Shown: piece after piece, positions 667 to 59,971 of the stretch
Position numbering within the stretch: position 1 is the first letter of the stretch
Layout of the letters: each line of letters opens with the position of its first letter
Assembly: GCA_951406725.2 (NCBI GenBank)
Contig: OX597830.1
Span: 18,786,001 to 18,850,000, forward strand
Direction: 5' to 3'
Length of the DNA: 64,000 nucleotides
From: Octopus vulgaris
Lineage: Eukaryota
Position numbers and translations under genes: made by a program
Notes under the pieces: generated by a model
Databases searched by the model: none
What the model saw: only the letters and a program-made list of their open reading frames with translations
Told to the model about the DNA's origin: nothing

Positions 667-2258
667 CAGTGGGGGGGGGGGGGGGGAATAAATATTCGTA
701 CATGTCAAAATTCTTTATTTAATTTCTAATGAACATAATTGGGATATACCAATACTATATTTGCATACACATGCATAAACTAAGAATATGCAAAAGAAAT
801 TGAATTATAGTAACTAAGGAATTTATATACAATTATAAATATTTAGGGGTGAAAAAAATATTCGTACAGAATAAATTTATGATTTTCTATGCCACAAAAT
901 ACTGTTAAAATAATTTTTTTTTACTAGGAATTTCTCGTTTGTTCCAATAATCTTATCAGTTGTCATTTTTAAGTGTCCAAACACTAGCTTCTTCATTCAG
1001 CATTGAGACAACATAAAGTAGTATCGTAATAATGGCGAAAAGTAAAGAACTCACAAATTCAGTGAAAAACTTAATTATTGAACAGTGGAAAGCAGGTAAA
1101 AGTTACAGGAAAATATCAGAGACCCTTTGTATTCCATTTTCTACCATATCTTCATTTATTCAAAGATATAAAAAAATTAGGAACAGTTGAAAACAGAATA
1201 AGATCCGGTGCACCATGCAAGATTTCCCCTAGATCTTTAAGAAAAATGAAGCAAAGAATCAGAAAAAAACGCAATGATCACCAGAAAGGAGTTGCAAGAA
1301 GATTTGTTAGCTTCAGGGACTAGTGTTACACTACGAACAATCAGCAATGAACTTCATAAGAATGAACTGAAATCACGCTCTCCTAGAAAATCTCTGCTGT
1401 TGACTAAAAGGCATAGAGATGCCCGTTTAAAATTTGCTTATGAACATAAAGATAAATCTGATACATTCTGGGAAAATGTTCTATGGACAGATGAGTCAAA
1501 AATGGAATTGTTTGGAGCCATGTTCGGAAGAAAGATGGTACCGCCTATTCACCAAAAAACACAATTCCTACTGTAAAGTTTGGAGGTGGCAACATCATGG
1601 TGTGGGGGTGTTTCTCTGCAAATGGTACTGGCAATTTACATGTGATAGATGGTAGAATGAATGCAGAGAGGTACCAAAATATTTTGAACAATGATTTATG
1701 GGACTCTGTAGAAAAACTCCAGCTTTGTGAAGGGTGGGTTTTACAACAGGATAATGATCCTAAGCACACAGCGAAGTCTATCAAAAAATGGACTGTCGAT
1801 CACAATATAAAATTATTAGAATGGCCAAGCCAGTCATCTGACTTGAACCCCATTGAAAATTTGTGGCATTATTTGAAAATTAAAATTCATTCAAGAGCCC
1901 CAACATGCATTGCAGATTTGAAGAAAATTTGTCAAGAAGAATGGGAAAAAATTCCTAAAGAAACATGCAAGTCATTGATTAAGAACTACAAGAAGAGATT
2001 GGTTGAAGTGGAACTGAATAATGGTTATGCTACGAAATATTAAATCAGAACTATTTATGTTCTGTACAAATACTTTTTTCACACCTAAATATTTATAATT
2101 GAATATAAATTCCTTAGTTACTATAATTTATTAGTTTCTTTTTCATATTCTTAGTTTATGCATGTGTATGCAAACATAGTATTGGTATATCCCATTTATG
2201 TTCATTAGAAATTAAATAAAGAATTTTGAAATGTACAAATATTTATTTCCCCCCACTG
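667..2258 (+). mobile_element. Full-length Tc1-family (DD34E) DNA transposon with long IR/DR termini
   Basis: TA|CAGTGGGG at 667 and CCCCACTG|TA at 2258; ~200-bp imperfect TIRs (667-~872, ~2059-2258). Each TIR holds two copies of an AAATATTCGTACA-like direct repeat. Internal transposase present. Confidence 0.95.
1032..2043 (+). pseudogene. Tc1 transposase, frameshifted
   Basis: Starts MAKSKEL (ATG 1032); paired-like HTH, WTDESK, GGGNIMVWGCF, QQDNDPKH...SSDLNPIENLW with 34 residues between D and E. Frameshifts near 1170, 1265 and 1520. Confidence 0.93.
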
Positions 2259-2478: not shown

Positions 2479-2481
<3 letters not shown>

Positions 2482-2560
2482 ATAATAAATAATATTAGGG
2501 TAATAAGAATTATAGAAATTACTATTACCAGTGGCCTAGCACAAAAAAATTAGTCAATAG
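2479..2560 (-). mobile_element. (TA)n-abutting tail fragment carrying the CTAGG bulged stem-loop motif
   Basis: Minus strand CTAGGCCACT-GGTAATAG-TAATT-loop-AATT-CTTATTACC-CTA then (TA)n; same layout as at 4021, 38809 and ~51880. Confidence 0.5.
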
Positions 2561-2639
2561 GCTATATATTATTCACATAAAAATATCGTGTACATTAAAA
2601 CACATTAAGAGGCTTCCAAATGTTGTCCACAAAGACATT

Positions 2640-3455
2640 AGATATAAGTCTTATATGATGAGGAATGGTCACATTTTCAGTAAAAGAAAATCACTACATC
2701 AGATCTAAGAGGTTCTTAAACAAACTGAAAAATCCAGCAGAAGAAGATTTGCTTTGGTTTTCCTCAAGCAAGAAAAATTTCGACCAAGATCAAAAAGTTG
2801 ACAGAAGAAATGACAGATGGTTATGTGCAGACCATTCTGAAGTTCCAAGTGTTATGCGTACAAAATTTCCTGAAATTGTCATGTTTTTAAGGGTTGTCAG
2901 CAATGAAGGACATGTGATGCTTCCTTACTTCTTTCCACAAAGTCTTAGAGTTAACTCTGCCACCTACATTGAGGTCCTGGAAATAATTTTTAAGCCCTGT
3001 GTATGCAATGGAAGGCCATATGTGTTTTAGTAAGACTCTGCACTAACACACATGGCTCTAGTAATACAGGAATGGATGGCTGAAAATGTTCATGATCACA
3101 TAGCCTCTAACATTTGGCCTCCTAATTCCACAGATCTCAATCTATTGGACTATGATATGTGGAGCCTTGTTGAGAGAGAGGTCAATGAACACGTCCATAA
3201 CACCAAAGATTCTTTAAAAGCTATCATAGTGAGAATAATGTCCAAAATGAACCAGGACCATTTGATTTGAGCATGTAGATGATTTAGATCTCATACAGAA
3301 GCAGTTATTGAAGCTGAAGGTGGCTTTATTGAATAACATTATAGAAAAGCAAGTTTATTTTTATCCTCATAGCATTTTTTGATAAATAAAGTTATTATCT
3401 GTTATTATATATGTTTTTTTATAAACATAAACCTCTCCTCAAATATCTTACACAC

Positions 3456-3459
<4 letters not shown>
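2640..3459 (+). mobile_element. maT (DD37D) Tc1/mariner transposon remnant, 3' part
   Basis: DQDQKVDRRNDRW, VVSNEGHVMLPYFFP, DSALTH...WPPNSTDLNLLDY with 37 residues between the last two D; ends in CACCCTG (TIR-like). Internal stops. Confidence 0.85.
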
Positions 3460-3496
<37 letters not shown>

Positions 3497-3545
3497 ATAT
3501 ATATATATATATAAATAAATATATATATATATATATATGCATATA

Positions 3546-3712
3546 GTTCAAATTTACAGAAAACAAAAGATGAAGGCAGGTGAGGGAACAAGCAGGTGTA
3601 TTAGTTTAACACTTAGGAAGAATGGAAAAGTCTTTGACGTTTGAAGCTTACACTCGTTTTGAGAAAGGTTTGAGAGGAAAGAAAACAGAATGAGAATGAA
3701 AAAAAAAAAGAA

Positions 3713-3715
<3 letters not shown>
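3546..3715 (-). repeat. (TA)n-embedded dispersed repeat (related copy at 59527-59617)
   Basis: Bounded by TA tracts; 3555-3620 is similar to the reverse complement of 59535-59600. Confidence 0.55.
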
Positions 3716-3752
<37 letters not shown>

Positions 3753-3756
<4 letters not shown>

Positions 3757-4080
3757 ACAATAAAGGAAGCCATAATAGGCCATTCACCCACTAGAAATAA
3801 CAGCCAAAGCTTAACCGCAAATAAAGTTAATTCAGTAAACCAGGAGAAAATTTAAAAAACATTTACAGGGTAAATGTTTTTTAAATTTTCTCCTGTTTAC
3901 TGAATTAACTTTATTTGCGGTTGAAGCTTGTTATTCTAGTGGGTGAATGGCTATTATGGCCGTTCCTTATTGTTGATGTTGAACTTAAAAATGGTCTATG
4001 ACTATTTTAATTTTTTCCTACTAGGCCGCTGGTGGCAAAAGAATTCTACAAAATTTTTTTGCCACCCTATATTGATTAAT
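3753..4080 (+). mobile_element. Foldback element in (TA)n: ~110-bp inverted arms plus ~100-nt tail (PLE-like)
   Basis: 3753-3866 is the near-perfect reverse complement of 3870-3977. Unpaired tail 3978-4080 with hairpin GGTGGCAAAA/TTTTGCCACC (4031-4066). TA tracts on both sides. Confidence 0.65.
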
Positions 4081-12188: not shown

Positions 12189-15065
12189 TTACCTGGTGCT
12201 AAACATACCCAGCATGCAAGCCACAGGCTTCCATCTTTTCATAAACATATCTCGTGACAGACACCTCTTCTCCAGCCTGATCTTACTACCGAGTTGGTAA
12301 CTAAAAAAGTTAACCAACCCCTGGTCAGATACAAAGATACCTGTCACTATACCTTTCGTATGCGTCTTCCATACTGTTTCTTTCAGTATGGCTGCTACGC
12401 AGGAAAGACAAGCCTTCCTTTCCCTGCTGAGGAAAGGAGATGGCACAATCTCAATGATAGACTCCGCTGATAGCTGTACTATTCCACTCACTGACAACAG
12501 TTGTTCGGCAAAATAATCAGTCCCGATAACTCCGGGAACTCCACGAATGCGTGCAAGACGGTTTCCCTATCCTGCTCACATCGCGGACATGTCGGCGAGA
12601 CGGCACTTCCGTGCCTTGACAGCTTGTCGCGAACAGGTAACGCCGCACGGAAACACTGCCAGGCTAGGGATTTATGGTAATTATCCAAATACCTCGGCCC
12701 GAACGTTCTCCGGAACAGGTTGAGTAACTGATTTTCATCGTAGCCCAGGATCTCCCCCAAGACGTCTTCTGACAAATTCCACTAACCCGCTATAGAAATC
12801 CGCGGTGGAACTCCTGTTGCCGGCAGTGCCCGCCCGAAAGAGTAGCTGGAGTGCCTGACGACACTCCAATTGCCATCCCCCCAGTTTAGGTCTCCGCTTG
12901 ATCCATGCACCGGTGTCCGTTAAGGACGTTAACTGGGGAAGGTAGAACCGAACGTGCGGTGACCACAACTGCTCTCCATCTAGATAAAGCCAGAAGTGCC
13001 TCAATCTTTACGCGAATTTTCGCATCTTCAACCAAGGCATCCCTAGCCCACCCTTTAGCGGTTTCTGGCAGCAGACAGAGCGCTTTACAAGTGGCTTTCC
13101 TCCTGTCCACAAAAAGGATTCTCTCCAACATGTTCATCCACAAATCGGGGCAAGGCACCACGGTCAGATGGTAGGTGATTACTGATGCTATGAACATCTG
13201 CACTACCTCCGCCCTCCCTAGCAGAGATAACGCCCATCCAGACCAGACGCAGCAAATGATTTTAGCTCAATAGAGGCCATCGATTGGTTAAAATTCGAAA
13301 AATTAAACTACGTTAAACTTACAAATTACAATTTTCTCAAGAAAGCCAAGAGAAAAAAAATGTTTTATTTTGATACATTCTACCAGTATACGAAGTTTAA
13401 AAGTGTTTAGTTAACTAGAAATTGTGTTGAAAACTGCCGTTCAAAAGGAAAAGATCCCACGTTTGAGCTTCCCCGACAAGTTTGTCCACGACCCGCACCA
13501 ACCTTTTCGCTAGCACCTTGGCCAAAATCTTTAACTCTGTGTTCAGCAGAGTTATGGGCCTGAAGTTCCCTATCTCGTCCCCCTTGCTCGGGTCCTTCCT
13601 GATCAACGTCACCACCCCCGGCTCGCAGACTTGGAAATTCTCCCATTCTGCTGCCAATTGGCGAAGACGCTAGCCAGCAGGTGCCCGAACAAGTCTGGCA
13701 TACTTTTACAAAACTCATAAGGCAGACCATCGAGACCCGGCGACTTCTCCTCGGGGCACTCGCCCAACACCTCGATTACTTCCTCAGCTGTGATTGGCCC
13801 CTCACAGCACGTGCCGAGAGACGCGGGCCACCAGACAGGAAGTCCCTAAGGACCTCACTATGATCCAGCGTCCCGCACCTCCCGAACAACTCGGCGAAGT
13901 GCTTGTAAAGTGCCTCACACATCTCGTCCCGCTCCTTGACCGTGCATTCGTTTTCGTCAACAAGAGACCTAATTGTGGCATCGTTTCCACGCTGTGTTTC
14001 TATCGTACGGGCCCATCCGGCACATTAATTCCCTCACGGCCCAATGCTCGCACTTTAGCCTGAACTCTACACCCCTGATGTTTGATTTTGAGGTGACAGT
14101 CTAATGCTGTTCTCACCGCCAAAATGTGAGATGCAGAGCCCAACCTCAACGCCTCCTCTAAGTTCTTAATTGCCCTTTTATTCCAGCCCTGTCTAGTCTT
14201 AGTTGCTTACTAAACCTAATGGACTCTAATCGAATGGCTCTTTTAAGGGCGAACCACCACCGGTTATTTACCACGGCTCCGGTTAACGCCTTCTGCACTA
14301 ACTCCTTAATCCAACTACGGTATGCCTTACAAGTCAAAATAGACTTGTTCAGCTTCCAGTAGCCGGGTCCTATCTTAAGTGTGCTACTTATGTCCAGTCT
14401 ACACTTGATCATTCTATGGTCAGTATAGGACACCTGGACAAGCTGTGGACAACTAAAACTAGACTTATCTAGTTCTTATCACTATCCTATCTAGATAAGA
14501 CTTGAACCTTCCGTCGCCTCTCATCCAGGTCCACTCTGGGACGTTCGGATGGTCAAGTCTGTAACGATCTGCCAGCTGAAACCTCTTAAGCAGAAGCACG
14601 AGTTCACTTATCTATGGATCGAGCCAACACTATCGAGGTGTACGTCAACGATAGCATTTAATACCACTAATGTCTTCGATGTCACGAGAAAGCCCTCTAG
14701 GCGCCGATAAAAATCAGTTTGGAAACCTCTAGCACAAGGTGCATAGAGTCCGATCAACCTGAAAGCCTTACTGCTGTATATCACATCAAGGACGACCAGC
14801 CCACCTTCAGGGTCCACGTAGACTGTACTTGTCTGCAGAGCCAAGCCTTTACGGATCAGTACCACTACACCCCCTCGCCCTCCGGTCTGGCCAGGAGACA
14901 TGATTTTCTCGTAGCCATTCAGGAGAGGCGAGAAGGTTTGTAGACTGTCCAGCTTGGTCTCTGTAGCAACCATTACATGTATATCATGTGATCGAAGATC
15001 GTCGAGGAAACACGCCTGCTTCCATTTCGAACTCAGACCACGCACATTTAAACAACCAAAGTTAA
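12189..15065 (-). pseudogene. Tx1 ORF2 (APE endonuclease-RT-zinc finger), disrupted
   Basis: CLNVRGL...ATETKL, FRLIGLYAP, TDHRMI...GPGYWKLNKSIL, KSPGLDGLPYEF, NFRPITLLNTELKILAKVLAKRL; multiple frameshifts. Confidence 0.9.
13250..13457. mobile_element. One-ended Merlin-type MITE inside Tx1 ORF2
   Basis: Ends AAAACTGCCGTTCAAAAGGAAAAGATCC, similar to the TIR of 23680-24107 and 49167-49561; the other end is missing. Confidence 0.75.
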
Positions 15066-15098
15066 ATGAGTCCGTTCACAAAAAGTAAAAAGTTCTAC

Positions 15099-16474
15099 TT
15101 ACTTTTTCCTTGGAGAAGCTGGGGTCGACTTCACCGCATGGGGATCAGCCCCTTCCTTCGCATAATCTGGTAATTCATTAATTTTCCAAATGGTGTGCGG
15201 GTTCCTTTCCCTTAAGTCGCGGTATAGGGTTTCCCCTATCGCTGCACATCTCCGCGTTAATTCTTTATGTTGAATATAAAGTTTTGTCCTCTGATGTGTC
15301 ACAATAGCTTCGTTGGTGTATTGTTCCGTAGTGTCGTATTCGACAAGCATACGGTTTTCCTCTTTTTCTTCCGGGGCAGTTGAGCGGGATTTCTTTTTTA
15401 TTGTCTTTTGTGTATTGTTTTGGTTTTTTGTAGGGGATATGGATGGGGAGGGTTTTCGTTTTCGAGGTGTTGTAAATCCACCCTCTGATACCTCCATGGT
15501 ATCGTCTGAGGGGTCAATGTCTGTGGGGGGTCACACTTTTTGGAGCAGTCGGTGCCACAGCTTCCAAGGGGATGGGTGTTTTTACATTTGTAGGGGTTTG
15601 TGCGTGCAGGGGCTGAGTCTTTTTTGTCGTTTGTTTCGGGGCTGGCACCACAACAGGGGGAGAGGGAATTTTTTTGTTTGTGGGGATTTGTGTGTTTGCG
15701 GGGGTGGGTTTTTTTGGTTATTTGAGGGGCCTGGTATTTGCGACAACTTTTTTTTTTCTTCACAGTCCGCTCGAATGTGGCCCTTTTTTCCGCACTGTTA
15801 ACAGGTGGGCTTACGGCCTTCCACCTGTACCCTAAGGGCCATATTCTCCCCAACGAGCACTCACTCTGGTAGGACCTGAAGGTCCTCCTGTGTCCCCTGA
15901 ATCAGGATCGTAGCGCTTCGCCCGAGTCAATTCTGGGGGGTGGGGTGGAGCATGTTATTTGTAAGATTTTTATTTGGTCCGCCATATCAAACAACAGGGC
16001 GGCCACCACTTCTCTTGGGTCTACTTTAGGCGGTACTTCATTTATTCTTAATCTAGATATTCTTTTCCCCATATACATGGGTAGAAGTACCACCTCATTT
16101 GACTTCAGGGGACACGCGGAGTGCCCGCGGGCCACCTCTTCGTCTGAGAAGCGAACCTCGACTGAGTCATATGTCCGTCCCCTTGCAATGTACGTTATTT
16201 CCCTCCATATCGGGGACAGGCATTTCTCTATTTTTGCTTCTTCAAAGTGTTTAAACCTTCTGTCTTTTGGGCAGACGGTTTTGAACACTACGGTCCGCTT
16301 TTCAGCGTCCACCACAGTTGAAGAAGGTGATATTATCACATCACCTCCTTCTTTATTCATACGTTTAAAATATCCCTGTAGCATACCCACAGGCATATCA
16401 ATGTTTCCGGTTGCCACTGCGGCAACCTCCGGAAACTTTTTTTCCATTGTTAACATGACAGCCGACATCATCAT
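15099..16474 (-). pseudogene. Tx1 ORF1 (nucleic-acid binding, zinc knuckle), disrupted
   Basis: ORF segments 15902-16474 and 15099-15497; VEGRKPTC*QCGKKGHIRADC at ~15762-15823. Confidence 0.8.
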
Positions 16475-17072
16475 TGCTCTTTATAAGAGCACACTTTTCG
16501 TGTATAATTTCCACCGACATGGTTGAAATTAATAACACGAGTAATAAAATTAATTAAATTGGTTTCTCACAAACTGGGAAACCTATAAAAAATTTTTCCT
16601 CTCAAAGAGGATAATAAATTTTTGAATTATGTAATACAGTTCAAATCCCACCCCCGTTAGGGGGAGGGGCACAAAAATAGTCTAAAGACTATTACAATTC
16701 AAAAATGTTATTCACACACGAAGAAAAAAGCCACAATGGCCAAAGTTCAGTATTTTTACGAAAGTGTTAAATTATTAAATTATTCCCAGGTAAGACCGAG
16801 GAATAAAACAATTCAAAAACGTTCAAATGTAACTCTTTGTTTCAAAGGTAACACATCCAAAAAGTAATATCAACAAAACAGTAACAAAGAAGCAATAACA
16901 ACAGCAAAAATTCTTACCACGAGGAAAGACACGTATTGACCCTTCTATGGTTAGCACACAGCCATTCTTGCGCCTTGGTAAAGTATATGTAAATGATGAG
17001 ACTTTTTTGTTCGAGAAAAAAATACGGTATTTATTATAATGAAGTGAGAGATAACCTAAAAAAGATCGAATA

Positions 17073-38740: not shown

Positions 38741-38751
<11 letters not shown>

Positions 38752-39207
38752 TGAGGGAGATAAATTGAATATTAATTTAATTAATACCAATTTAAAACCA
38801 GTAGCCTAGCGTATAAGAAATCTGAAAAATCAGAAAAAGTTTCAATATATGTGTATATTTAGGAAAACCACTAGGTGGATAACTGTACGCTAGAAGAAGA
38901 TCACATACGATCTAACTACAAAGAAAAAATGTTCCCCTGAGAATATTCAGCGAACACCAGAACATAAGCGGGCAAGACAGATGAAAATTATATAAAAATC
39001 AAGAATTAATCGTATACCGGTTCCGTCTGTTACCGATAAATTACTTACGTCATCCTTCGTCCGCAGAACTCGTCAGTACGATCGTTCCAATTTCAATATA
39101 ATTTGAAAAACTAAACACTAATTGTCCATATAAAACTTTTTTCTTTGTAGTTAGATCGTATGTGATCTTCTTCTAGCGTATGGTTATCCACCTAGTGGTT
39201 TCCCTAA

Positions 39208-39210
<3 letters not shown>
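38741..39210 (-). mobile_element. PLE-like element in microsatellite: inverted 74-bp arms, hammerhead, ~110-nt tail
   Basis: 38856-38929 is inverted at 39137-39210; HHR in the spacer; tail 38741-38850 carries the CTAGGCTACTGGT stem-loop. Confidence 0.65.
39009..39082 (-). ncRNA. Type I hammerhead ribozyme, long loop II, degenerate core (GGAA)
   Basis: ATCGTA-CTGACGA-GTTCTG...CAGAC-GGAA-CCG-GTA-TACGAT; 6-bp stem I, palindromic stem III ACCGGT. Confidence 0.7.
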
Positions 39211-39282
<72 letters not shown>

Positions 39283-39432: not shown

Positions 39433-39565
39433 GAATGCTGAAAAGTGAAGTTCCTGACTTTACAGGGCTTAGAAAAGCTGAAGGACCGCTGCAATAAGGG
39501 GATCAGTGAGGGGAATAAAATTATGTTTAGCTGATCCTCCTGTACTTTCTTTTACCCAAAGCCTA

Positions 39566-39629
<64 letters not shown>

Positions 39630-39630
<1 letters not shown>

Positions 39631-40552
39631 AAAGCTAATAATAAAATAGAAACAGACATATATTATAAGCCTACAGACTCTAAGCAATATCTTCCATTCA
39701 ATTCATGCCACCCCAGACACACCAGGATGAATATCCCCTTCAATCTAGCAAAAAGGATATGCACTATAGTCTCTAACGCAAACACCAGAGACACACGACT
39801 ACAAGAACTAAAAGATACCCTTATCACCAGGAACTATCCACCTTCACTTATTGACAAGTGCATTCAACGTGCCCTTCAACTTAACATCAAGGAACTGAGA
39901 CATCCCAAATCAAAGAAAAACTTACAACCAAAAGCCTTACCATACATCTCCACACACAACCCTCTCAATAACGAAGCCTTCGGCACCATCCTCCACAACA
40001 TACCCCTCCTAAAAAAAGACCACAGAATGAACACAATCCTCCAAACACACACGATCATAAAAAGCAAAGACAGCCTAAATCCATGAAAAGTCTCCTAACA
40101 CAATCCCGAATTCACTCTTCAACACAGAAGCCGACAGTAAAAAATGTGGAAGACCCAATTGCGGGATATGCGACTATCTAATTGAGGGATCAGAGTTCTC
40201 CTTCAAACAGGGACAACGGTTTACAGTGAAAAGCAACTTCACATGTGCTTCGGAGAACCTAATATACTCACTAACCTGCTCCGGGTGTCAAGAGCAGTAC
40301 ATAGGCCAAACAAAAAATAGTTTGCGTAAACGAATGGCGCTGCACAGATCCCAGATAAAAATTCCCCAAAACAGAAAAATAGCTTTTAGCCAACACATAG
40401 ATACTTGCGCCAACAAAAGAACACCAAGCTTCAGGATTTTCCCCCTCTACCAATTTAGGGACGATACAACCTCGAGACAACGAATAAGTAAAGAAACTCT
40501 CTTTATTACAAAATACAGGCCACTTCTTAACGGGTCTACGACAAACAATTAA
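39630..40552 (+). pseudogene. PLE RT-thumb/GIY-YIG endonuclease ORF, frameshifted
   Basis: ETDIYYKPTDSKQYLPFNSCHPRHT.MNIPFNLAKRIC; KCGRPNCGIC; FTCASENLIYSLTCSGCQEQYIGQTKNSLRKRMALHRSQI...E..FITKYRPLLN. Confidence 0.9.
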
Positions 40553-40721
40553 TATACCTCAACTTTAGAATAAAAGAAATATATACACACACAAATATTA
40601 CATTCCAAAGAATCCATTACTAATCACAGCTATAGTCACAGCTATAACTCCATAACATGCCAACTTCAAGCCATACAACACCTCACTACTTTCACCCATT
40701 CATATTCTCCCTTCTCTGTTT

Positions 40722-40946
40722 TTTTCTTCTTCTTCCTCTTCTTCTTCATCATCATCATTATCATCATCATCGTCGTCATCATCATCACCACCATCATCAT
40801 CATCATCATCTTCTCCTTCTTCTTCTTCTTCTTCTTCTTCTTCTTCTTCTTCTTCTTCTTCTTCATCATCATCAACATCGTCATCTTCTTCTTCTTCTTC
40901 TTCTTCTTCTTCTTCTTCTTCTTCTTCTTCTTCTTCTTCTACTTCT
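40722..40946. repeat. Compound (CTT)n/(CAT)n microsatellite in the PLE 3' region
   Basis: Direct inspection. Confidence 0.95.
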
Positions 40947-41300
40947 CCACCTTCTACCCCTTAACTTTGTCACTAATGTTTTTTAGTATAACACCTACGC
41001 AAATTCCATAAACAAGCCTTTCAATAGAAATATTCTTCTGAATTGAACTGCGACTGCTAGCCGCCACTGACCATTCAAAATACGACCATCAGGGCACTCC
41101 CAGATTTTCCCACCCCCTCTCCTCATCAGCCTTCTTCTTCTTCTACTCTACCAAGAACTCACAACGACCTCGAACACACAAGTGCAAACAAGGGAGTCAG
41201 AGAAAGGCAGAATGCCACTTATATCTGAACACTACTATAGAAATATTCCATTAAAAAAACTTTTCTTCTAATTTTTCTAAATTTAATTATTTAATCGTTA

Positions 41301-41338
41301 CAGTTGAAAAGGTCTCAAAATGACCGAAACCGGTACTG
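41301..41338 (+). ncRNA. Minimal type I hammerhead ribozyme with U3-A8 core variant
   Basis: CAG-TTGAAAA-GGTC-TCAAAAT-GACC-GAAA-CCG-GTA-CTG; lies at the 3' end of a PLE, the expected position. Confidence 0.75.
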
Positions 41339-41385
41339 AAATGTTCACTATAAAATTATTTTAGCATTTTCTATTTTTGACTTGT

Positions 41386-41449
<64 letters not shown>

Positions 41450-44150: not shown

Positions 44151-44499
44151 CCAGCACAAATCCTGTTTACTATTACTGGACAGTATTTTTGTGACGTATA
44201 TAATATATACTCAGAAAAAATGCATTTGCGATATATTAGGAGGTCAAGAAAGATGAGACCATAAAAAAAAAAAAACGTTGAAAAAATAATTCCGGTGAAA
44301 TCGGGGTCGGAGGATTTCCAAGGGTACATCCCACCCCACCCCTCCGTTTTCCGCGGAAAGAATGCCTTTCCGACAGCTTGCGAGGTCAACTAAGACGATT
44401 GCACCCCCAAAAACCGCGAGAAAAATTATTTTGTACCGAAATCGAGTCTGGTGGGAAACTATAAATTTACCATTTTTTAAAGTCTGGTGTTTATTCTAT

Positions 44500-47087
44500 C
44501 GGTATCTTTGTCGGTCAGACGAGAGAGCAAACGCCTCAGGTTACTCAAGTGATCATTGGCGTCTTGCCCACTGATGAGCATATCGTTTTGGAAGACGGCA
44601 ACTCCAGGCTGATCACTGGTTAGGATCTCCACGATCTCCTGGTAGTAACCAGGCGCTGACTTGATTCCAAATGGGAGTCGTTGCTGCAGGAGTACTCCCC
44701 GGTGAGTGCTGAGGGCTAGCCTTCGTTGACTCTCTGGTACCAGCTTGATCTGGTTGTAGGCATCAGCAAGGTCAATCTTCGTGTAACCGCATCCACCTCC
44801 TAGCTTCTGCATCAGTTCCTCTGAGAACGGCATTGGATGACGGTGTCCCTCTAGTTGACCGTTGATACAGAGTAGTCGTTATTGATCCGAAACATGAGCT
44901 TCGGGGTGCCCGGACTATGTGCCTTCTGAATCGGTACCACTGGTGTTCCATATTCGTTGAACTGGACTTGCTTCAAGACACCTTTGGCGATGCTTCCTTC
45001 GTAACCTTTGACCATGTCATCACGAAGAGCGAACGGAACCGGTTGTGCCTTGTGAAAAACTGGCTTCGCATTAGTCTTGAACTTTACTTCCAGTTTGAAA
45101 TCTTTAAGGCAGGGAAGTATAAGGCTTGTTAGAGGTCTTAGGATGCGATGTTCTTGCACCCACACTCTTGTCTTGACTCTCTGTGCATCTCAGCCCAAGA
45201 GCATTGTCTACAGAGATTCCCAGTGTCTGGATAGCGTTTCGTCCCAGCAAGTTCGGGTCAGGGATCTCAGTGACTATGTAAGGAGTTGAGCTTTGTTTAT
45301 CAGTCATTGGATCCTTGATTTGGTCCATAAAAGTTCCTTGCACGGGCAGGTCGTGCTTGCTGGTAGACTCGTAACGAAGTCTGATACAATCCAGCTTCAG
45401 TTTTCCTAGTTGTTTCCAGACCAGCAAAGAAACGAAATTTCCCGTAATTGCAGTGTCCAGTTCCATCGTGAACTGTCAGTTCTGGATTGTGATTGGCACA
45501 ACTAACCTAGAAGTATCGTCGGAAACTTCATCGAAGATTATTTTGACAAGCTCTGCTTTCGTGATTCTCTTGACGGAAGGTTGGGGACGATGTTTCCGTT
45601 GCTGTCCTTGCTTCTTCTTACAGCTTCCAAATGTCCTTTCTTGTCACAAAAATGGCATTGACTTCTTTGCAGGGGCAGTCTGTCACTTTATGGGCCTTTC
45701 CACATCTGTAATACTTCAACTCAGGATCTGTGGAATTAGTACTGCTGGTGGGTTATTCGTTGACCCTTGTTCTGTCTCTGCTTGTCCTCGTTGACAGGAC
45801 TGGTCTTCGAACCGTAAGCAGTTTCCTTGGCAACCATCGCCGGGTCTTCGGTCTCAATCGCAACTTGGACAGCACGGGCAAGTCTAGCACTGTGTCCTTG
45901 ATCTCGAAAAGAGTCTTCAAAACAGCTTCATTGTTGACAGAACATATGAATCTCTGTCTAAGAGCTTCATCTTCAGGGTCTGTGATCGAAAGAAAGTCAT
46001 AGGCAGCAGCGTCTTGACGTATAAACGCTGCCATCCCCTTGAGAGTTTCGCCTGGCTTTCGTTGCATGTCACTCCAGATCTTGAAACGTTCTCGCACAAT
46101 GAAACGTTTTGGGTCGAATTGTTCTTTCATAAAGTTGACAATTTCCTCCATCGTCAGCTCGTTAATATCTTTGGGATGCACCCTTGGAAATCCTCCGACC
46201 CCGATTTCACCGGAAATTATTTTTTCAACGTTTTTTTTTTTTTTTATGGTCTCATCTTTCTTGACCTCCTAATATATCGCAAATGCATTTTTTCTGAGTA
46301 TATATCATATACGTCACAAAAACACTGTCCAGTAATTAGCTAGATTCGCCAGTTGTTTATAGATGGTAGCGGTTTGATTCGTCAAGAAAACCTGAGCCTT
46401 GCGCTGGTCAAGCACGGCGTTAGTCACAACAAAAGTGCGGAGTCTTGACTAGTAATCAGGTCACAGTTCTGATGTTGAATCAAATGCAGCAAATGGTGGG
46501 ATAGTAGTTGAAGAGTGGAGGCGCAATGGCCCAGTGGTTAGGGCAGCGGACTCGCGGTCATAGGATCGCGGTTTCGATTCCCAGACCGGGCGTTGTGAGT
46601 GTTTATTGAGCGAAAACACCTAAAGCTCCACGAGGCTCCGGCAGGGGATGGTGGTGATCCCTGCTGTACTCTTTCACCACAACTTTCTCTCACTCTTACT
46701 TCCTGTTTCTGTTGTACCTGTATTTCAAAGGGCTGGCCTTCTCACTCTCTGTGTCATGCTGAATATCCCCGAGAACTACGTTAAGGGTACACGTGTCTGT
46801 GGAGTGCTCAGCCACTTACACGCTAATTTCACGAGCAGGCTGTTCCGTTGATTCGGATCAACCGGAACCCTCGTCGTCGTAACCGACGGAGTGCTTCCAT
46901 CCCAGTAGTTGAAGAAGTTGAAAGACAGGAACTTGGACTGGAATACTTTTCAGAAATTTGAACTTGAATCAGCCTTCTCAAAGCTTCCATATCTTCTCTG
47001 CTGCAGCGCCTGTACCTCCATTTGTTCCCTCTGGAGTCAAAATTGTTGAGGGAACAACTTTCTCAGCTCGCCGCTTTGTTCCGCCAT
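44500..47087 (-). pseudogene. Gypsy gag-pol, multiply disrupted
   Basis: ATG 47087 (MAEQSGELRKLF); ORF pieces 45753-46181, 45104-45466, 44851-45165, 44477-44833. Confidence 0.85.
46515..46903 (+). mobile_element. SINE-C with a distinct tail and 12-bp TSD, inserted in gag
   Basis: tRNA head TGGCCCAGTGGTTAG...GTTTCGATTCC; TSD AGTAGTTGAAGA at 46503-46514 and 46904-46915. Confidence 0.9.
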
Positions 47088-51790: not shown

Positions 51791-51822
<32 letters not shown>

Positions 51823-51968
51823 AAGCAATAAAGATTCAAGTTAATTTAAATGAATTTACTTGAATATGGTACCTAACTTAGATGCACCAAAAAAAAACTA
51901 TACTGATTTAACAATACAGTAATGTGGGGTGATTATAAGCGAGAATGAAGCAACAAGAATGGATAGGT

Positions 51969-52059
51969 TTTTAGTACAATCGTTTCATACAAGGACAGGT
52001 TTTATTAAAAGTTGCAAAAATTACAGCATATAAACGTGTCCCGTACTCATCAGCTAAAA
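51969..52059 (-). ncRNA. Type I hammerhead ribozyme, extended stem-loop II (mirror copy)
   Basis: Reverse complement of 52457-52546 with a 1-nt indel. Confidence 0.8.
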
Positions 52060-52456
52060 TACATGTGAGTTCTCTAGACATCCTAGTGGTTGAGGCTATA
52101 CTCATGAAGTAATGTAGATAATTAAGTAACATAAACAGATTTCAAAAGTTCATTAAAGTTCTTTAAAGATGATGTACAGTCTTATCACAGAATTTTAAAA
52201 AAAGTCTTAATAGCATCACAGAGAAGGTGACCCAATCCATAGTGCACATATGAATTTCCAGAGATATGTGCACTATGGATTAGGTCACCTTCTCTGTGAT
52301 GCTATTAAGACTTTTTTTAAAATTCTGTGATAAGACTGTACATCATCTTTAAAGAACTTTAATGAACTTTTGAAATCTGTTTATGTTACTTAATTATCTA
52401 CATTACTTCATGAGTATAGCCTCAACCTACTAGGATGTCTAGAGAACTCACATGTA

Positions 52457-52546
52457 TTTTAGCTGATGAGTACGGGACACGTTTATATGCTGTAATTTTG
52501 CAACTTTTAATAAAACCTGTCCTTGTATGAAACGATTGTACTAAAA
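52457..52546 (+). ncRNA. Type I hammerhead ribozyme, extended stem-loop II
   Basis: TTTTAG-CTGATGA-GTACGGGACA...TGTCCTTGTAT-GAAA-CGATT-GTA-CTAAAA; intact core, 6-bp stem I, ~10-bp stem II, GUA cleavage triplet at 52538-52540. Confidence 0.85.
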
Positions 52547-52573
52547 ACTATCCATTCTTGTTGCTTCATTCTC

Positions 52574-52620
<47 letters not shown>

Positions 52621-52691: not shown

Positions 52692-55060
52692 CATCATCAT
52701 CACCACCATCATTATCATCATCATCATCGTTTAACGTCCGCTTTCCATGCTGGCATGGGTTGGACAGTCTGACTGAGGCCTGGTGAGCCAGATGGCTGCA
52801 CCAGGCTTCAATCTGATCAGGCAGAGTTTCTACAGCTGGATGCCCTTCCTAATGCCAACCACTCCGAGAGTGTAGTGGGTGCTTTTACGTTCCACAGGCA
52901 CAAGAGCCAGTCAGGCGGTACTGGCAACAGCCATGCTCAAATAGTGGTTTTTATGTGCCACTTGGACAGGAGCCAGTCCAGCGGCACTGGCAATGACTTC
53001 ACTCGAATGTTGTTTTTCATGTGCCACTGGCCCAAGTGCCAGTAAGGCGATGCTGGTAACAGTCACACTCGAATGGTGCTTTTGACATGCCACTGGCATG
53101 CGAGTCAGTCAGGAGGCCTTGCAACGATCATGCTCAGATGGTGCTCTTAGTGCTCCACTAGCACGGATGCCAGTCATGCGGTGCTGTCATCGAATTTGAT
53201 TTTGATTTCATTTGCCTCAACAGGTCTTTGCAAGCAGAGTTTAGTGTCCAATGAAAGAAAGGTATGTACAAATGGGCTGGTTACACCACTGGCATAAGCC
53301 ACGGGTTATGGTCTCACTTGGCTTGCCAGGTCTTCTCAAGCACACATATTTCCAAAGGTCTTGGTCACTGATCATTGCCTCGGTGAGGCCTAATGTTTGA
53401 AAGTCATGCTTCACCACCTCATCCCAGGTCTTCCTGGGTCTACCTCTTCCACAGGTTCCCTCAACCGCTAGGGTGTGACACTTTTTAACACAGCTATCCT
53501 CATCCATTCTCACCACATGACCATACCAGCACAGTCATCTCTCTTGCACATCACATCTGATGCTTCTTAGGTCCAACTTTTCTCTCAAGGCACTTACACT
53601 CTGTCAAGTATGCACACTGACATTACACATCCAGTGGAGCATACTGGCTTCATTCCTTGCAAGCTTACGCATGTCCTCAGCAGTCACGGCCCATGTTTCA
53701 CTGCCATGTAGCATGGCTATTCGTACACATGCATCATACAGTCTACCTTTTACTCTGAGTGAGATGCCCTTTGTCACCAGCAGAGATAGGAGCTCTCTGA
53801 ACTTTGCCCAGGCTATTCTTATTCTAGCAGCTACACTTTCAGAGCACCCACCCCCACTACGGCCTTGGTCACCTAGGTAACGGAAGCTATCAACTACTTC
53901 TAGTTTTTCTCCCTGGAATGTAGCGGAAGTTGTTCTCTGCACATTTTCAGTGTTTATTGCTCCTGAGCATTTGCCACATAGAAAAACTATCTTCCCAGTT
54001 AGCCTTCCTTTGATATTGCTGCACCTCTTATGTGTCCATAGCTTACACTGGGTACATCTTATAGAGTTTCTACCTAGGCCTTTTCTACAGATCGAGCAGG
54101 GCCATCTACCTGAAGGGATTTGTGGTTTGTCTGCCTTCCTACTTATTAGGACTTTGGTTTTAGCTAGGTTGACTCTAAGGCCCTTCGATTCTAATCCTTG
54201 CTTCCAAACCTGAAACTTCACCTCTAGTTCTGATAATGACTCAGCAATTAGAACAAGGTCATCAGCATGGAGGAGCTCTCAGGGGCATCCTGTCTTGAAT
54301 TCCTCTGTTATTGCCAAGAGGACTATGATAAATAGGAGGGGGCTGAGGACTGAACCTTAGTAGACCCCTACCACTATACAGAATTCTTCACTATACTCGT
54401 TGCCAACCCTCACCTTACTGACAGCGTCCCTGTACATGGCTCACACAGCTCTCACTAACCAATCTTCTATCTCTAGTTTCCTTACTGACCACCAGATAAG
54501 GGATCAGGAGATCCATGTCAACGAAAGCCAGGTACAGAGGTTTATCTTTGGCTAGGTATGTCTCCTGCGGCTGTTTTACTAGAAATATAGCATCAGTGGT
54601 GCTTTTCCCTGGCACGAACCCAAACTGCATCTCATCTAAACTGACTTTCTCCCTAAATAGTTGGGCTATGACCCTCTCCGTGACCTTCATTACCTGATCC
54701 AACTTGATACCTCAGTAATTATTTGTATCTAAAGTATCACCTTTACCTTTGTAGCAGTTGACTATTATGCTGCTACACCAGTCATTGGGTATGACTCTTT
54801 TATGTATCACCAGGTTAACTATATAGGTGACTAGGCTGTAGCTGACACCGCCAGATATTTTAAGCATCTCTGCGGTGATTCCTGATGGGCCAGGGACTTT
54901 CCCTGTCTTCATACTCTTAATTGCTTAATCTACCAAGGATAGCTGGTCCCTCTGCTGGGTCGACATTTGACAGACTCTCTCTCTCCCATTCATTCTCTTT
55001 ATGGAGCAACCTTTCATAGTGGCGTCTCCAAACCTCTCTCTTTGCAGCCTCATTCAGCGT
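52692..55060 (-). mobile_element. RTE-clade LINE, 5'-truncated
   Basis: RT motifs QFGFVPGKSTTDAIF, GSVLSPLLF, LLHADDLVL, LRVNLAKTK, FRYLG, GRGRPRKTW; 3' end CCATGCCAGCATGGAAAGCGGACGTTAAAC(GAT)n. Confidence 0.92.
53300..55060 (-). pseudogene. RTE reverse transcriptase with an inserted PHD finger, disrupted
   Basis: ORF pieces 54712-54912, 54415-54702, 53604-54221, 53241-53516; C4HC3 motif at 53967-54098. Confidence 0.88.
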
Positions 55061-59379: not shown

Positions 59380-59612
59380 ATCTACAGTATCCTACCAATG
59401 CCTGATATCTTCATAGTTGATTTTCCTCACTGTTATTGTACCTAGCCATTTCTGGCATCCTACATGTTGAAGTGCCTAGATTCTATTGAATTCTATAATC
59501 TATGCACACACACACATTATATATATTTTTTCACTTCCCGAGCGTTAAACTAATACATCTGTTTGTTGTCTACACCACCTGTCTTCGTCTTTTGTTTTCT
59601 TTTGTGAATTCT

Positions 59613-59650
<38 letters not shown>

Positions 59651-59971
59651 AAACTGCTATCTTTAGTGGACAGGTATCCACCACTGAAGGTGGGCAAAAA
59701 TAGTCCAAAACTGGCTGATCTGATGGTCCTGTTAAGTTGCTGGAATATGGGTAGGGGTTTACTCCCCTGCTTGCAATATGTATTGGGTGCAGATTGCATA
59801 GATAACCAGCAAGAGGAGGCATCCTTTTGGGGTTAAAAAATGGTAATAACATTGGTTTGTACAGAACAGCCATGTTGAAGTGATGACAAAATATATTTCT
59901 CAGTATAGCTTCTACTTTCATTTCTTAGAGAGATTTTCTAACTAGCTACTTAGATTGTTATATATATATAT

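Follow-up and report, generated by a model that had tools for sequence, protein, structure and literature searches.

Predicted nested helices around two TA-junction sites in the leaders of Octopus vulgaris retrozymes and Hydra-clade PLEs

Hammerhead-bearing elements at four hairpin loci

The window, the whole 64-kb stretch of the Octopus vulgaris genome analyzed here, contains four loci at which a hairpin stands beside a (TA)n tract. The original prediction was that a bulged stem-loop recurs there in four sequence-unrelated elements and acts as a cis-acting RNA signal. All four hairpins are present. Three start where they had been placed, at 4021 (+), 2539 (−), and 38809 (−), and the fourth starts at 51876 (−) rather than at ~51887; these loci and their families are called A, B, C, and D, respectively. 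A loose scan of the window (YTAGG-type start, TA tract within 90 nt) returned exactly these four loci, and Rfam gave no match within the 64-kb window. In the 2.8-Gb genome, to which all counts, alignments, and folds given here refer, the A/B/C-type motif had 10,630 matches versus 457 for a reversed control. Each locus belongs to a family of high copy number; first-look candidates numbered 1,219 to 2,653, and 40 were scored per family.

The family A insertion (3755 to 4080) consists of an inverted arm (3755 to ~3866, −) and a direct arm (~3867 to 4080, +), with (TA)n on both sides; it is 5′-truncated and lacks the hammerhead. On the plus strand, the 5′ strands of the helices P1a and P1 described below lie at 3917 to 3921 and 3936 to 3943 (read by hand), their 3′ strands at 4017 to 4029 (P1, 4017 to 4024; P1a, 4025 to 4029), and the terminal hairpin P4 at 4031 to 4066. 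TA is joined at 4080 on the downstream side, and the inverted arm has its upstream-site junction at 3755. The family B end (2479 to 2621, −), with P4 at 2499 to 2529 and the 3′ strands of P1a and P1 at 2530 to 2543, is also 5′-truncated and has lost the P1 5′ strand and the hammerhead. It directly abuts a Tc1/mariner remnant (2622 to 3440, +) that we take to be maT-like. The family C insertion (38745 to 39216) has a minus-strand arm and an inverted arm (39137 to 39216) ending at the upstream site. The minus-strand arm carries a degenerate hammerhead (~39008 to 39083), the 5′ strands of P1a (38915 to 38919) and P1 (38886 to 38893), the 3′ strands of both (38801 to 38813), and P4 (38756 to 38799), the helix coordinates having been read by hand.

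The family D insertion (51822 to 52574) consists of two 3′ ends in head-to-head orientation that appear to derive from an autonomous Hydra-clade PLE, with hammerheads at 52053 to 51975 (−) and 52463 to 52540 (+). Hairpin P4 (51834 to 51865) and the 5′ strand of helix P0 (51868 to 51878) together span 51834 to 51878 (−). The 5′ strand of an outer helix, P00, which is complementary to the start-codon region, lies at 51951 to 51963 (−, by hand), and the upstream TA-junction site of D is ~11 nt 3′ of it. The window copy is terminal, and the P0 partner, which would lie ~50 nt beyond the TA junction, is absent.

Other mobile elements occur elsewhere in the window. An element at 669 to 2258 (+), which has terminal inverted repeats and whose transposase is broken, is, judging from its motifs, presumably Tc1-like. 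A 5′-truncated PLE at 39535 to 41390 (+), which we assume to be Neptune-like, has a Pfam GIY-YIG match with a CxxC inside the core and a degenerate hammerhead ~60 nt before (TA)n, and it lacks a hairpin of the type studied here. Two short PLE-like ends (3502 to 3620 and 59534 to 59651), 78% related, stand beside (TA)n. Broken non-LTR retrotransposon ORFs (endonuclease and RT pieces) are found at ~12200 to 16500 (−) and 53600 to 54280 (−), and broken LTR-retrotransposon-like gag/pol pieces are found at 44477 to 46268 (−).

The description of the four elements as sequence-unrelated holds for their bodies outside the leader, which have no pairwise similarity (z of −1.9 to 1.9), but A, B, and C can be aligned in their leaders; D falls outside this alignment. 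In the comparison of bodies, a fifth family, E, was linked to both A (z = 6.4) and B (z = 19.6). Judged by sequence, A, B, and C fit the ends of 470- to 540-nt non-coding, hammerhead-bearing tandem units, that is, non-LTR retrozymes. The units are 492 nt (A), 471 nt (B), and 544 nt (C, measured on a divergent copy) long, and GC content is 0.36 in A and 0.32 in B, below the 45% limit for retrozymes. No RT ORF was found in the A, B, and C loci. Family A forms 492-nt tandem arrays that are flanked by (TA)n and contain a head-to-head inversion, B and C are alike in this, and the tandem units extend past the hairpin as far as the next hammerhead. A type I hammerhead descriptor matched families A, C, and F; it missed B and E, and the B hammerhead, with a 4-bp stem I, was recognized by eye. 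Among contigs of sequencing runs guessed to be RNA, one of 523 nt equals the 492-nt unit plus 31 nt, a length that fits circles and tandem DNA equally. Published non-LTR retrozymes, which are regarded as non-autonomous PLEs (Li et al. 2026, 10.64898/2026.07.22.740005), are likewise described in the available text as AT-rich, non-coding units that are arranged in tandem and carry a type I hammerhead (Cervera and de la Pena 2020, PMC7229834; 10.64898/2026.07.22.740005). Unlike these, the families described here are dispersed as head-to-head insertions that target (TA)n and have PLE-type tails, and they keep a shared covarying fold across diverged families.

Related families E to I were obtained by pattern searches. 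One such search did not exceed its control and was used only to supply candidates; of 26 of these loci examined, 8 proved to be family members. A later set of 14 loci contained 3 that were not elements, 3 truncated copies, and 8 intact copies.

Family D was assigned from its motifs and is probably the end of an autonomous Hydra-clade PLE. Its ~2.9-kb ORF (~950 aa) encodes RT and endonuclease and is followed by a ~1.9-kb 3′ UTR. It contains RWK, DKT, and LYRDD-type catalytic motifs, a CxCx5C linker, CxxC, CxH, and, at the C terminus, GIY-YIG without CCHH, with one Cys inside the core; Pfam gave no match on a partial D ORF. A canonical hammerhead and (TA)n insertion are both found in D. An initial assignment to the Nematis clade was replaced by Hydra, whose diagnostics these motifs match. 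D is not shorter than 3 kb, whereas the Hydra elements in the text of Craig et al. (2021, PMC8557442) mostly are; the D ORF has an Asn-rich insert. A search with foreign homologues returned seven further Hydra families, mostly 33 to 77% identical, giving at least eight here versus one listed for Octopus in that text. Named relatives among the proteins looked up came from Argonauta. Long Asn-rich inserts between RT and endonuclease are seen in Hydra ORFs of this genome (L167:3107-5965). Family F7 (L277-L288) has a 727-aa ORF and many intact copies, and in 11 of 12 copies, in contrast to the other families, (TA)n is first met within the 3′ UTR, before the hammerhead.

A search among the eight Hydra families turned up no autonomous element with an A/B/C-type leader. 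Three leads to a driver of A, B, and C were dropped: a 6.2-kb spacing proved to be a segmental duplication, F7 has a leader of another kind, and F1, considered for its downstream hairpin, has its junction at −138, although it has a CTAG-type enclosing helix in common with them. Our guess is that the driver is a Hydra enzyme, from the TA targeting, the long hammerhead stem II regions, and the CTAG helix of F1. Between two copies of the 6.2-kb duplication, which carries a G-type retrozyme end, there is a 221-aa intron-free ORF (L257:4270-4935, +) that presumably encodes a dCMP deaminase-like protein.

Two TA junctions and one-sided tails

Junctions were mapped in fetched loci with the TAGG motif as position 0. 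TA was joined by 162 of 191 internal sense-3′ ends (some overlapping loci being counted twice), 58 of them at −34 to −85, 103 at +46 to +73, and one outlier, and sense-5′ ends were TA-adjacent in only 3 of 97 cases. This mapping bore out the (TA)n adjacency of the hairpins and also revealed a second TA-junction site that the original prediction did not include. The two fixed (TA)n sites are 100 to 120 nt apart in A to D and ~150 nt apart in the Hydra families F2 and F6, which have two sites each; in F1, a main site is accompanied by a second one upstream. Both sites fall in predicted single-stranded loops. Junctions are sharp in A and D (15 of 16 A upstream ends are at −46) and scatter over 10 to 30 nt in B and C.

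All 42 two-ended insertions (11 of A, 12 of B, 5 of C, and 14 of D) combined one upstream with one downstream end, and since the queries had been selected on the downstream end, the informative part of this count is the absence of down/down pairs. The stretch between the two sites is a PLE tail, as found in 42 of 42 insertions. These data show that these retrozymes integrate by the PLE route.

D upstream junctions have an extra CG before (TA)n in 7 of 22 cases, with the last base mismatching the template. The A upstream site and the D downstream site have in common an 8-mer, CTTTATTG, after a hairpin, in elements that are otherwise unalignable.

The Poseidon RT, a predicted dimer, starts at two internal sites that bound the tail and cuts both strands (Frangieh et al. 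2024, PMC11167929). As far as the text of that paper describes them, Poseidon tails resemble those found here in having two internal sites 3′ of the hammerhead, a tail at one end, an AT-rich target, and use of both strands. They differ in length, at 30 to 40 bp versus 100 to 120 nt here (~150 in F2/F6), the tails found here being three to four times longer; in place, lying within the ORF rather than in the 5′ leader; and in their start sites, which belong to one AC-rich stem-loop rather than to loops of nested covarying helices. This one biochemical study maps two start sites and, in the text available, gives no conserved structure.

Predicted helices in retrozyme and autonomous leaders

In A, B, C, and their relatives, the CTAG of the predicted stem-loop pairs with an upstream CTAG ~80 to 100 nt away, forming the long-range helix P1. 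Both sides have changed in five of nine pairs of P1, 95% of cells are paired, and P1 is the only helix that RNAalifold keeps in plain MAFFT alignments of 21 copies; P1a and P4 were not predicted in that consensus. The 6- to 7-nt segment thought to be an unpaired bulge is instead a helix strand. It pairs with a segment 21 to 25 nt upstream of P1 to form P1a, which has both-side changes in four of six pairs (12 cells versus 2.9, reached by 0 of 500 shuffles, and the best of seven registers). A cruder permutation test, with representatives that included truncated copies, gave a P value of 0.053 for P1a. As the families share ancestry, these controls are inflated and the shuffle counts are not to be read as probabilities. 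Minimum-energy folds of the eight new intact copies contained P1 in six and P1a in five. Within the loop closed by P1, the upstream junction stands between two hairpins. In predicted folds of A, C, E, and L261/L268, P1a/P1, P4, and the downstream junction all lie within an outer 9- to 13-bp helix; folds of B and F did not recover this helix, and there both it and P1 face competition from other folds. Pairing between the linker and sequence downstream of it differed from family to family. The upper stem of the hairpin is AT-rich, but its length and sequence differ among families, which does not fit a fixed AATT/AATT apex.

In tandem copies of D the hairpin lies ~60 nt upstream of the AUG, and the basal strand and bulge pair with a segment ~50 nt beyond the TA junction, beside the AUG, forming P0. 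Equivalent helices of 9 to 13 bp occur at the same place in F2, F2b, F4, F5, and F6, with unrelated sequences in three groups. P0 is 11 to 13 bp long and above 100 of 100 shuffles in F2, F2b, F4, F6, and D2, and it is 9 bp long in F5 (2/100). Two strand positions differ in a complementary manner between D2 and F4. F1 was not significant in the 140-nt P0 test because its helix, a 10-bp CTAG-type one, spans further. The outer helix P00, also in the 9- to 13-bp class, joins the start-codon region to sequence lying 3′ of the hammerhead, at a pair probability of 0.88 to 0.99 in all six autonomous leaders folded. In these leaders the upstream junction follows the P00 5′ strand and the downstream junction is in the P0 loop after P4. 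The nesting is thus opposite in the two groups: in retrozymes it is the upstream site that sits in the inner loop, and in autonomous elements the downstream site. In both groups, the two junction segments are predicted to lie in unpaired stretches of nested loops.

Of 21 copies, 19 share a U.G as the basal pair of P1. G.U pairs outnumber A.C by 32 to 8, or by 13 to 8 without the one shared pair. The antisense strands also fold better than shuffles (z of −2.6 to −7.4), more so than the sense strands in two of nine cases. By themselves, the G.U counts and strand folding are weak evidence for the RNA strand. The P0 and P1 partners lie 3′ of the junction that they enclose, so cDNA primed there would be made without them, which points to an RNA template.

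Alternatives and a proposed role in template recognition

The leader thus retains part of what had been proposed, a conserved structure at the TA-joined end of hammerhead and PLE elements, but not the form of a stand-alone bulged stem-loop. LINE 3′ stem-loops and hepadnaviral epsilon are structured RNA elements near the start of reverse transcription, and such a stem-loop would be supported by the CC(U) present after P4 in almost every copy, a possible pairing partner of the AG/GG before the linker (86 to 87% of cells paired), and by terminal D-type copies, which, lacking the P0 partner, fold the 7-bp lower helix and 6-nt bulge as drawn in three of eight variants. However, the (T)AG/CT(A) basal helix does not covary (one cell changed on both sides, matched by 204 of 500 shuffles), and the bases concerned take part in longer helices that show compensatory changes. 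The hairpin is also internal to the unit, with the unit or ORF running on downstream, so that it is not at the RNA 3′ end as in LINEs, and there is neither a conserved unpaired bulge nor a sign of protein priming as with epsilon. We therefore consider a stand-alone signal of this kind very improbable. Terminal hairpins of Helitron-like elements or MITEs with a CTAG end, suggested by the hairpin-then-CTAG order on the opposite strand, have next to no likelihood in our view: the element runs on past CTAG, the units carry hammerheads, D is joined to an RT-endonuclease ORF, and the insertions are head-to-head with variable inversion points.

Two further explanations accept the fold and differ on its function. 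It is unlikely, in our judgment, that the fold is selected for RNA housekeeping (circle stability, hammerhead folding, and translational silencing by P00) while an RT that binds loosely or at some other place primes at whatever AU-rich loops it finds exposed. P00 does sequester the AUG, retrozyme RNAs are described as stable circles in the text of PMC7229834, and the B and C junctions scatter, but loose priming gives no reason to expect that all 42 insertions would combine an upstream with a downstream end, the A and D junctions are sharp, and non-coding units, which have no AUG to silence, retain a comparable loop. Alternatively, the helices might act in DNA, as nascent cDNA or an extruded cruciform, and be read by the GIY-YIG endonuclease as it trims an intermediate at two sites. 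Folding of the antisense strands would allow this, and the available texts recount that the Penelope tail is required for endonuclease recognition of plasmid DNA (PMC11167929) and attribute tails to endonuclease-mediated resolution (PMC8557442). Against this, the U.G at the P1 base would become a mismatched A.C in cDNA, the partner strands of P0 and P1 are located past the junction, and the sites mapped in Poseidon were, according to the text of PMC11167929, sites where the RT starts. Hence, we regard action in DNA as decidedly improbable.

The hairpin-containing structure is most likely an RT-binding or initiation signal. We consider it probable, on the basis of predicted folds and junction positions, that the multi-helix RNA leader 3′ of the hammerhead binds a dimeric PLE RT-endonuclease and presents two single-stranded start sites, one per cut strand of (TA)n. 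In this model, the endonuclease would cut both strands of (TA)n, and each 3′-OH would prime cDNA at one of the sites. Copying would proceed 5′-ward through the hammerhead site, which implies that the template would be an uncleaved multimer or circle, giving tandem units. The two cDNAs would be joined head-to-head, with a 100- to 120-nt tail containing the hairpin left on one side only. As P00 buries the AUG, the folded form of an autonomous leader would favor reverse transcription over translation. Retrozymes A, B, and C would borrow a PLE enzyme, most likely Hydra, by keeping such a fold. More speculatively, and with some doubt on our part, the folded leader may be a scaffold for a dimeric telomerase-related enzyme that primes two cDNAs at once, the AUG-burying helix refolding to switch mRNA to template and circular retrozymes parasitizing the system through mimicry with permuted connectivity.

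Hydra PLEs, tails, two-site initiation, and retrozymes are already published. No account of the fold, the AUG-burying helix, or the strict pairing of one upstream with one downstream end was found in literature texts including those of PMC11167929, PMC4209133, PMC8557442, PMC7229834, PMC3846280, and 10.64898/2026.07.22.740005, as far as these were available, and the available text of PMC8557442 contained no description of Hydra leader structure. If true, the single-scaffold reading would provide one mechanism for one-sided tails, head-to-head arms, and tandem arrays. The finding bears on how PLE RTs, the closest relatives of telomerase, recognize their templates and on the origin of one-sided tails. 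With many diverged families, helices that covary, junctions mapped to the base, and ORFs that are young and intact, the octopus genome offers material for direct tests of template recognition.
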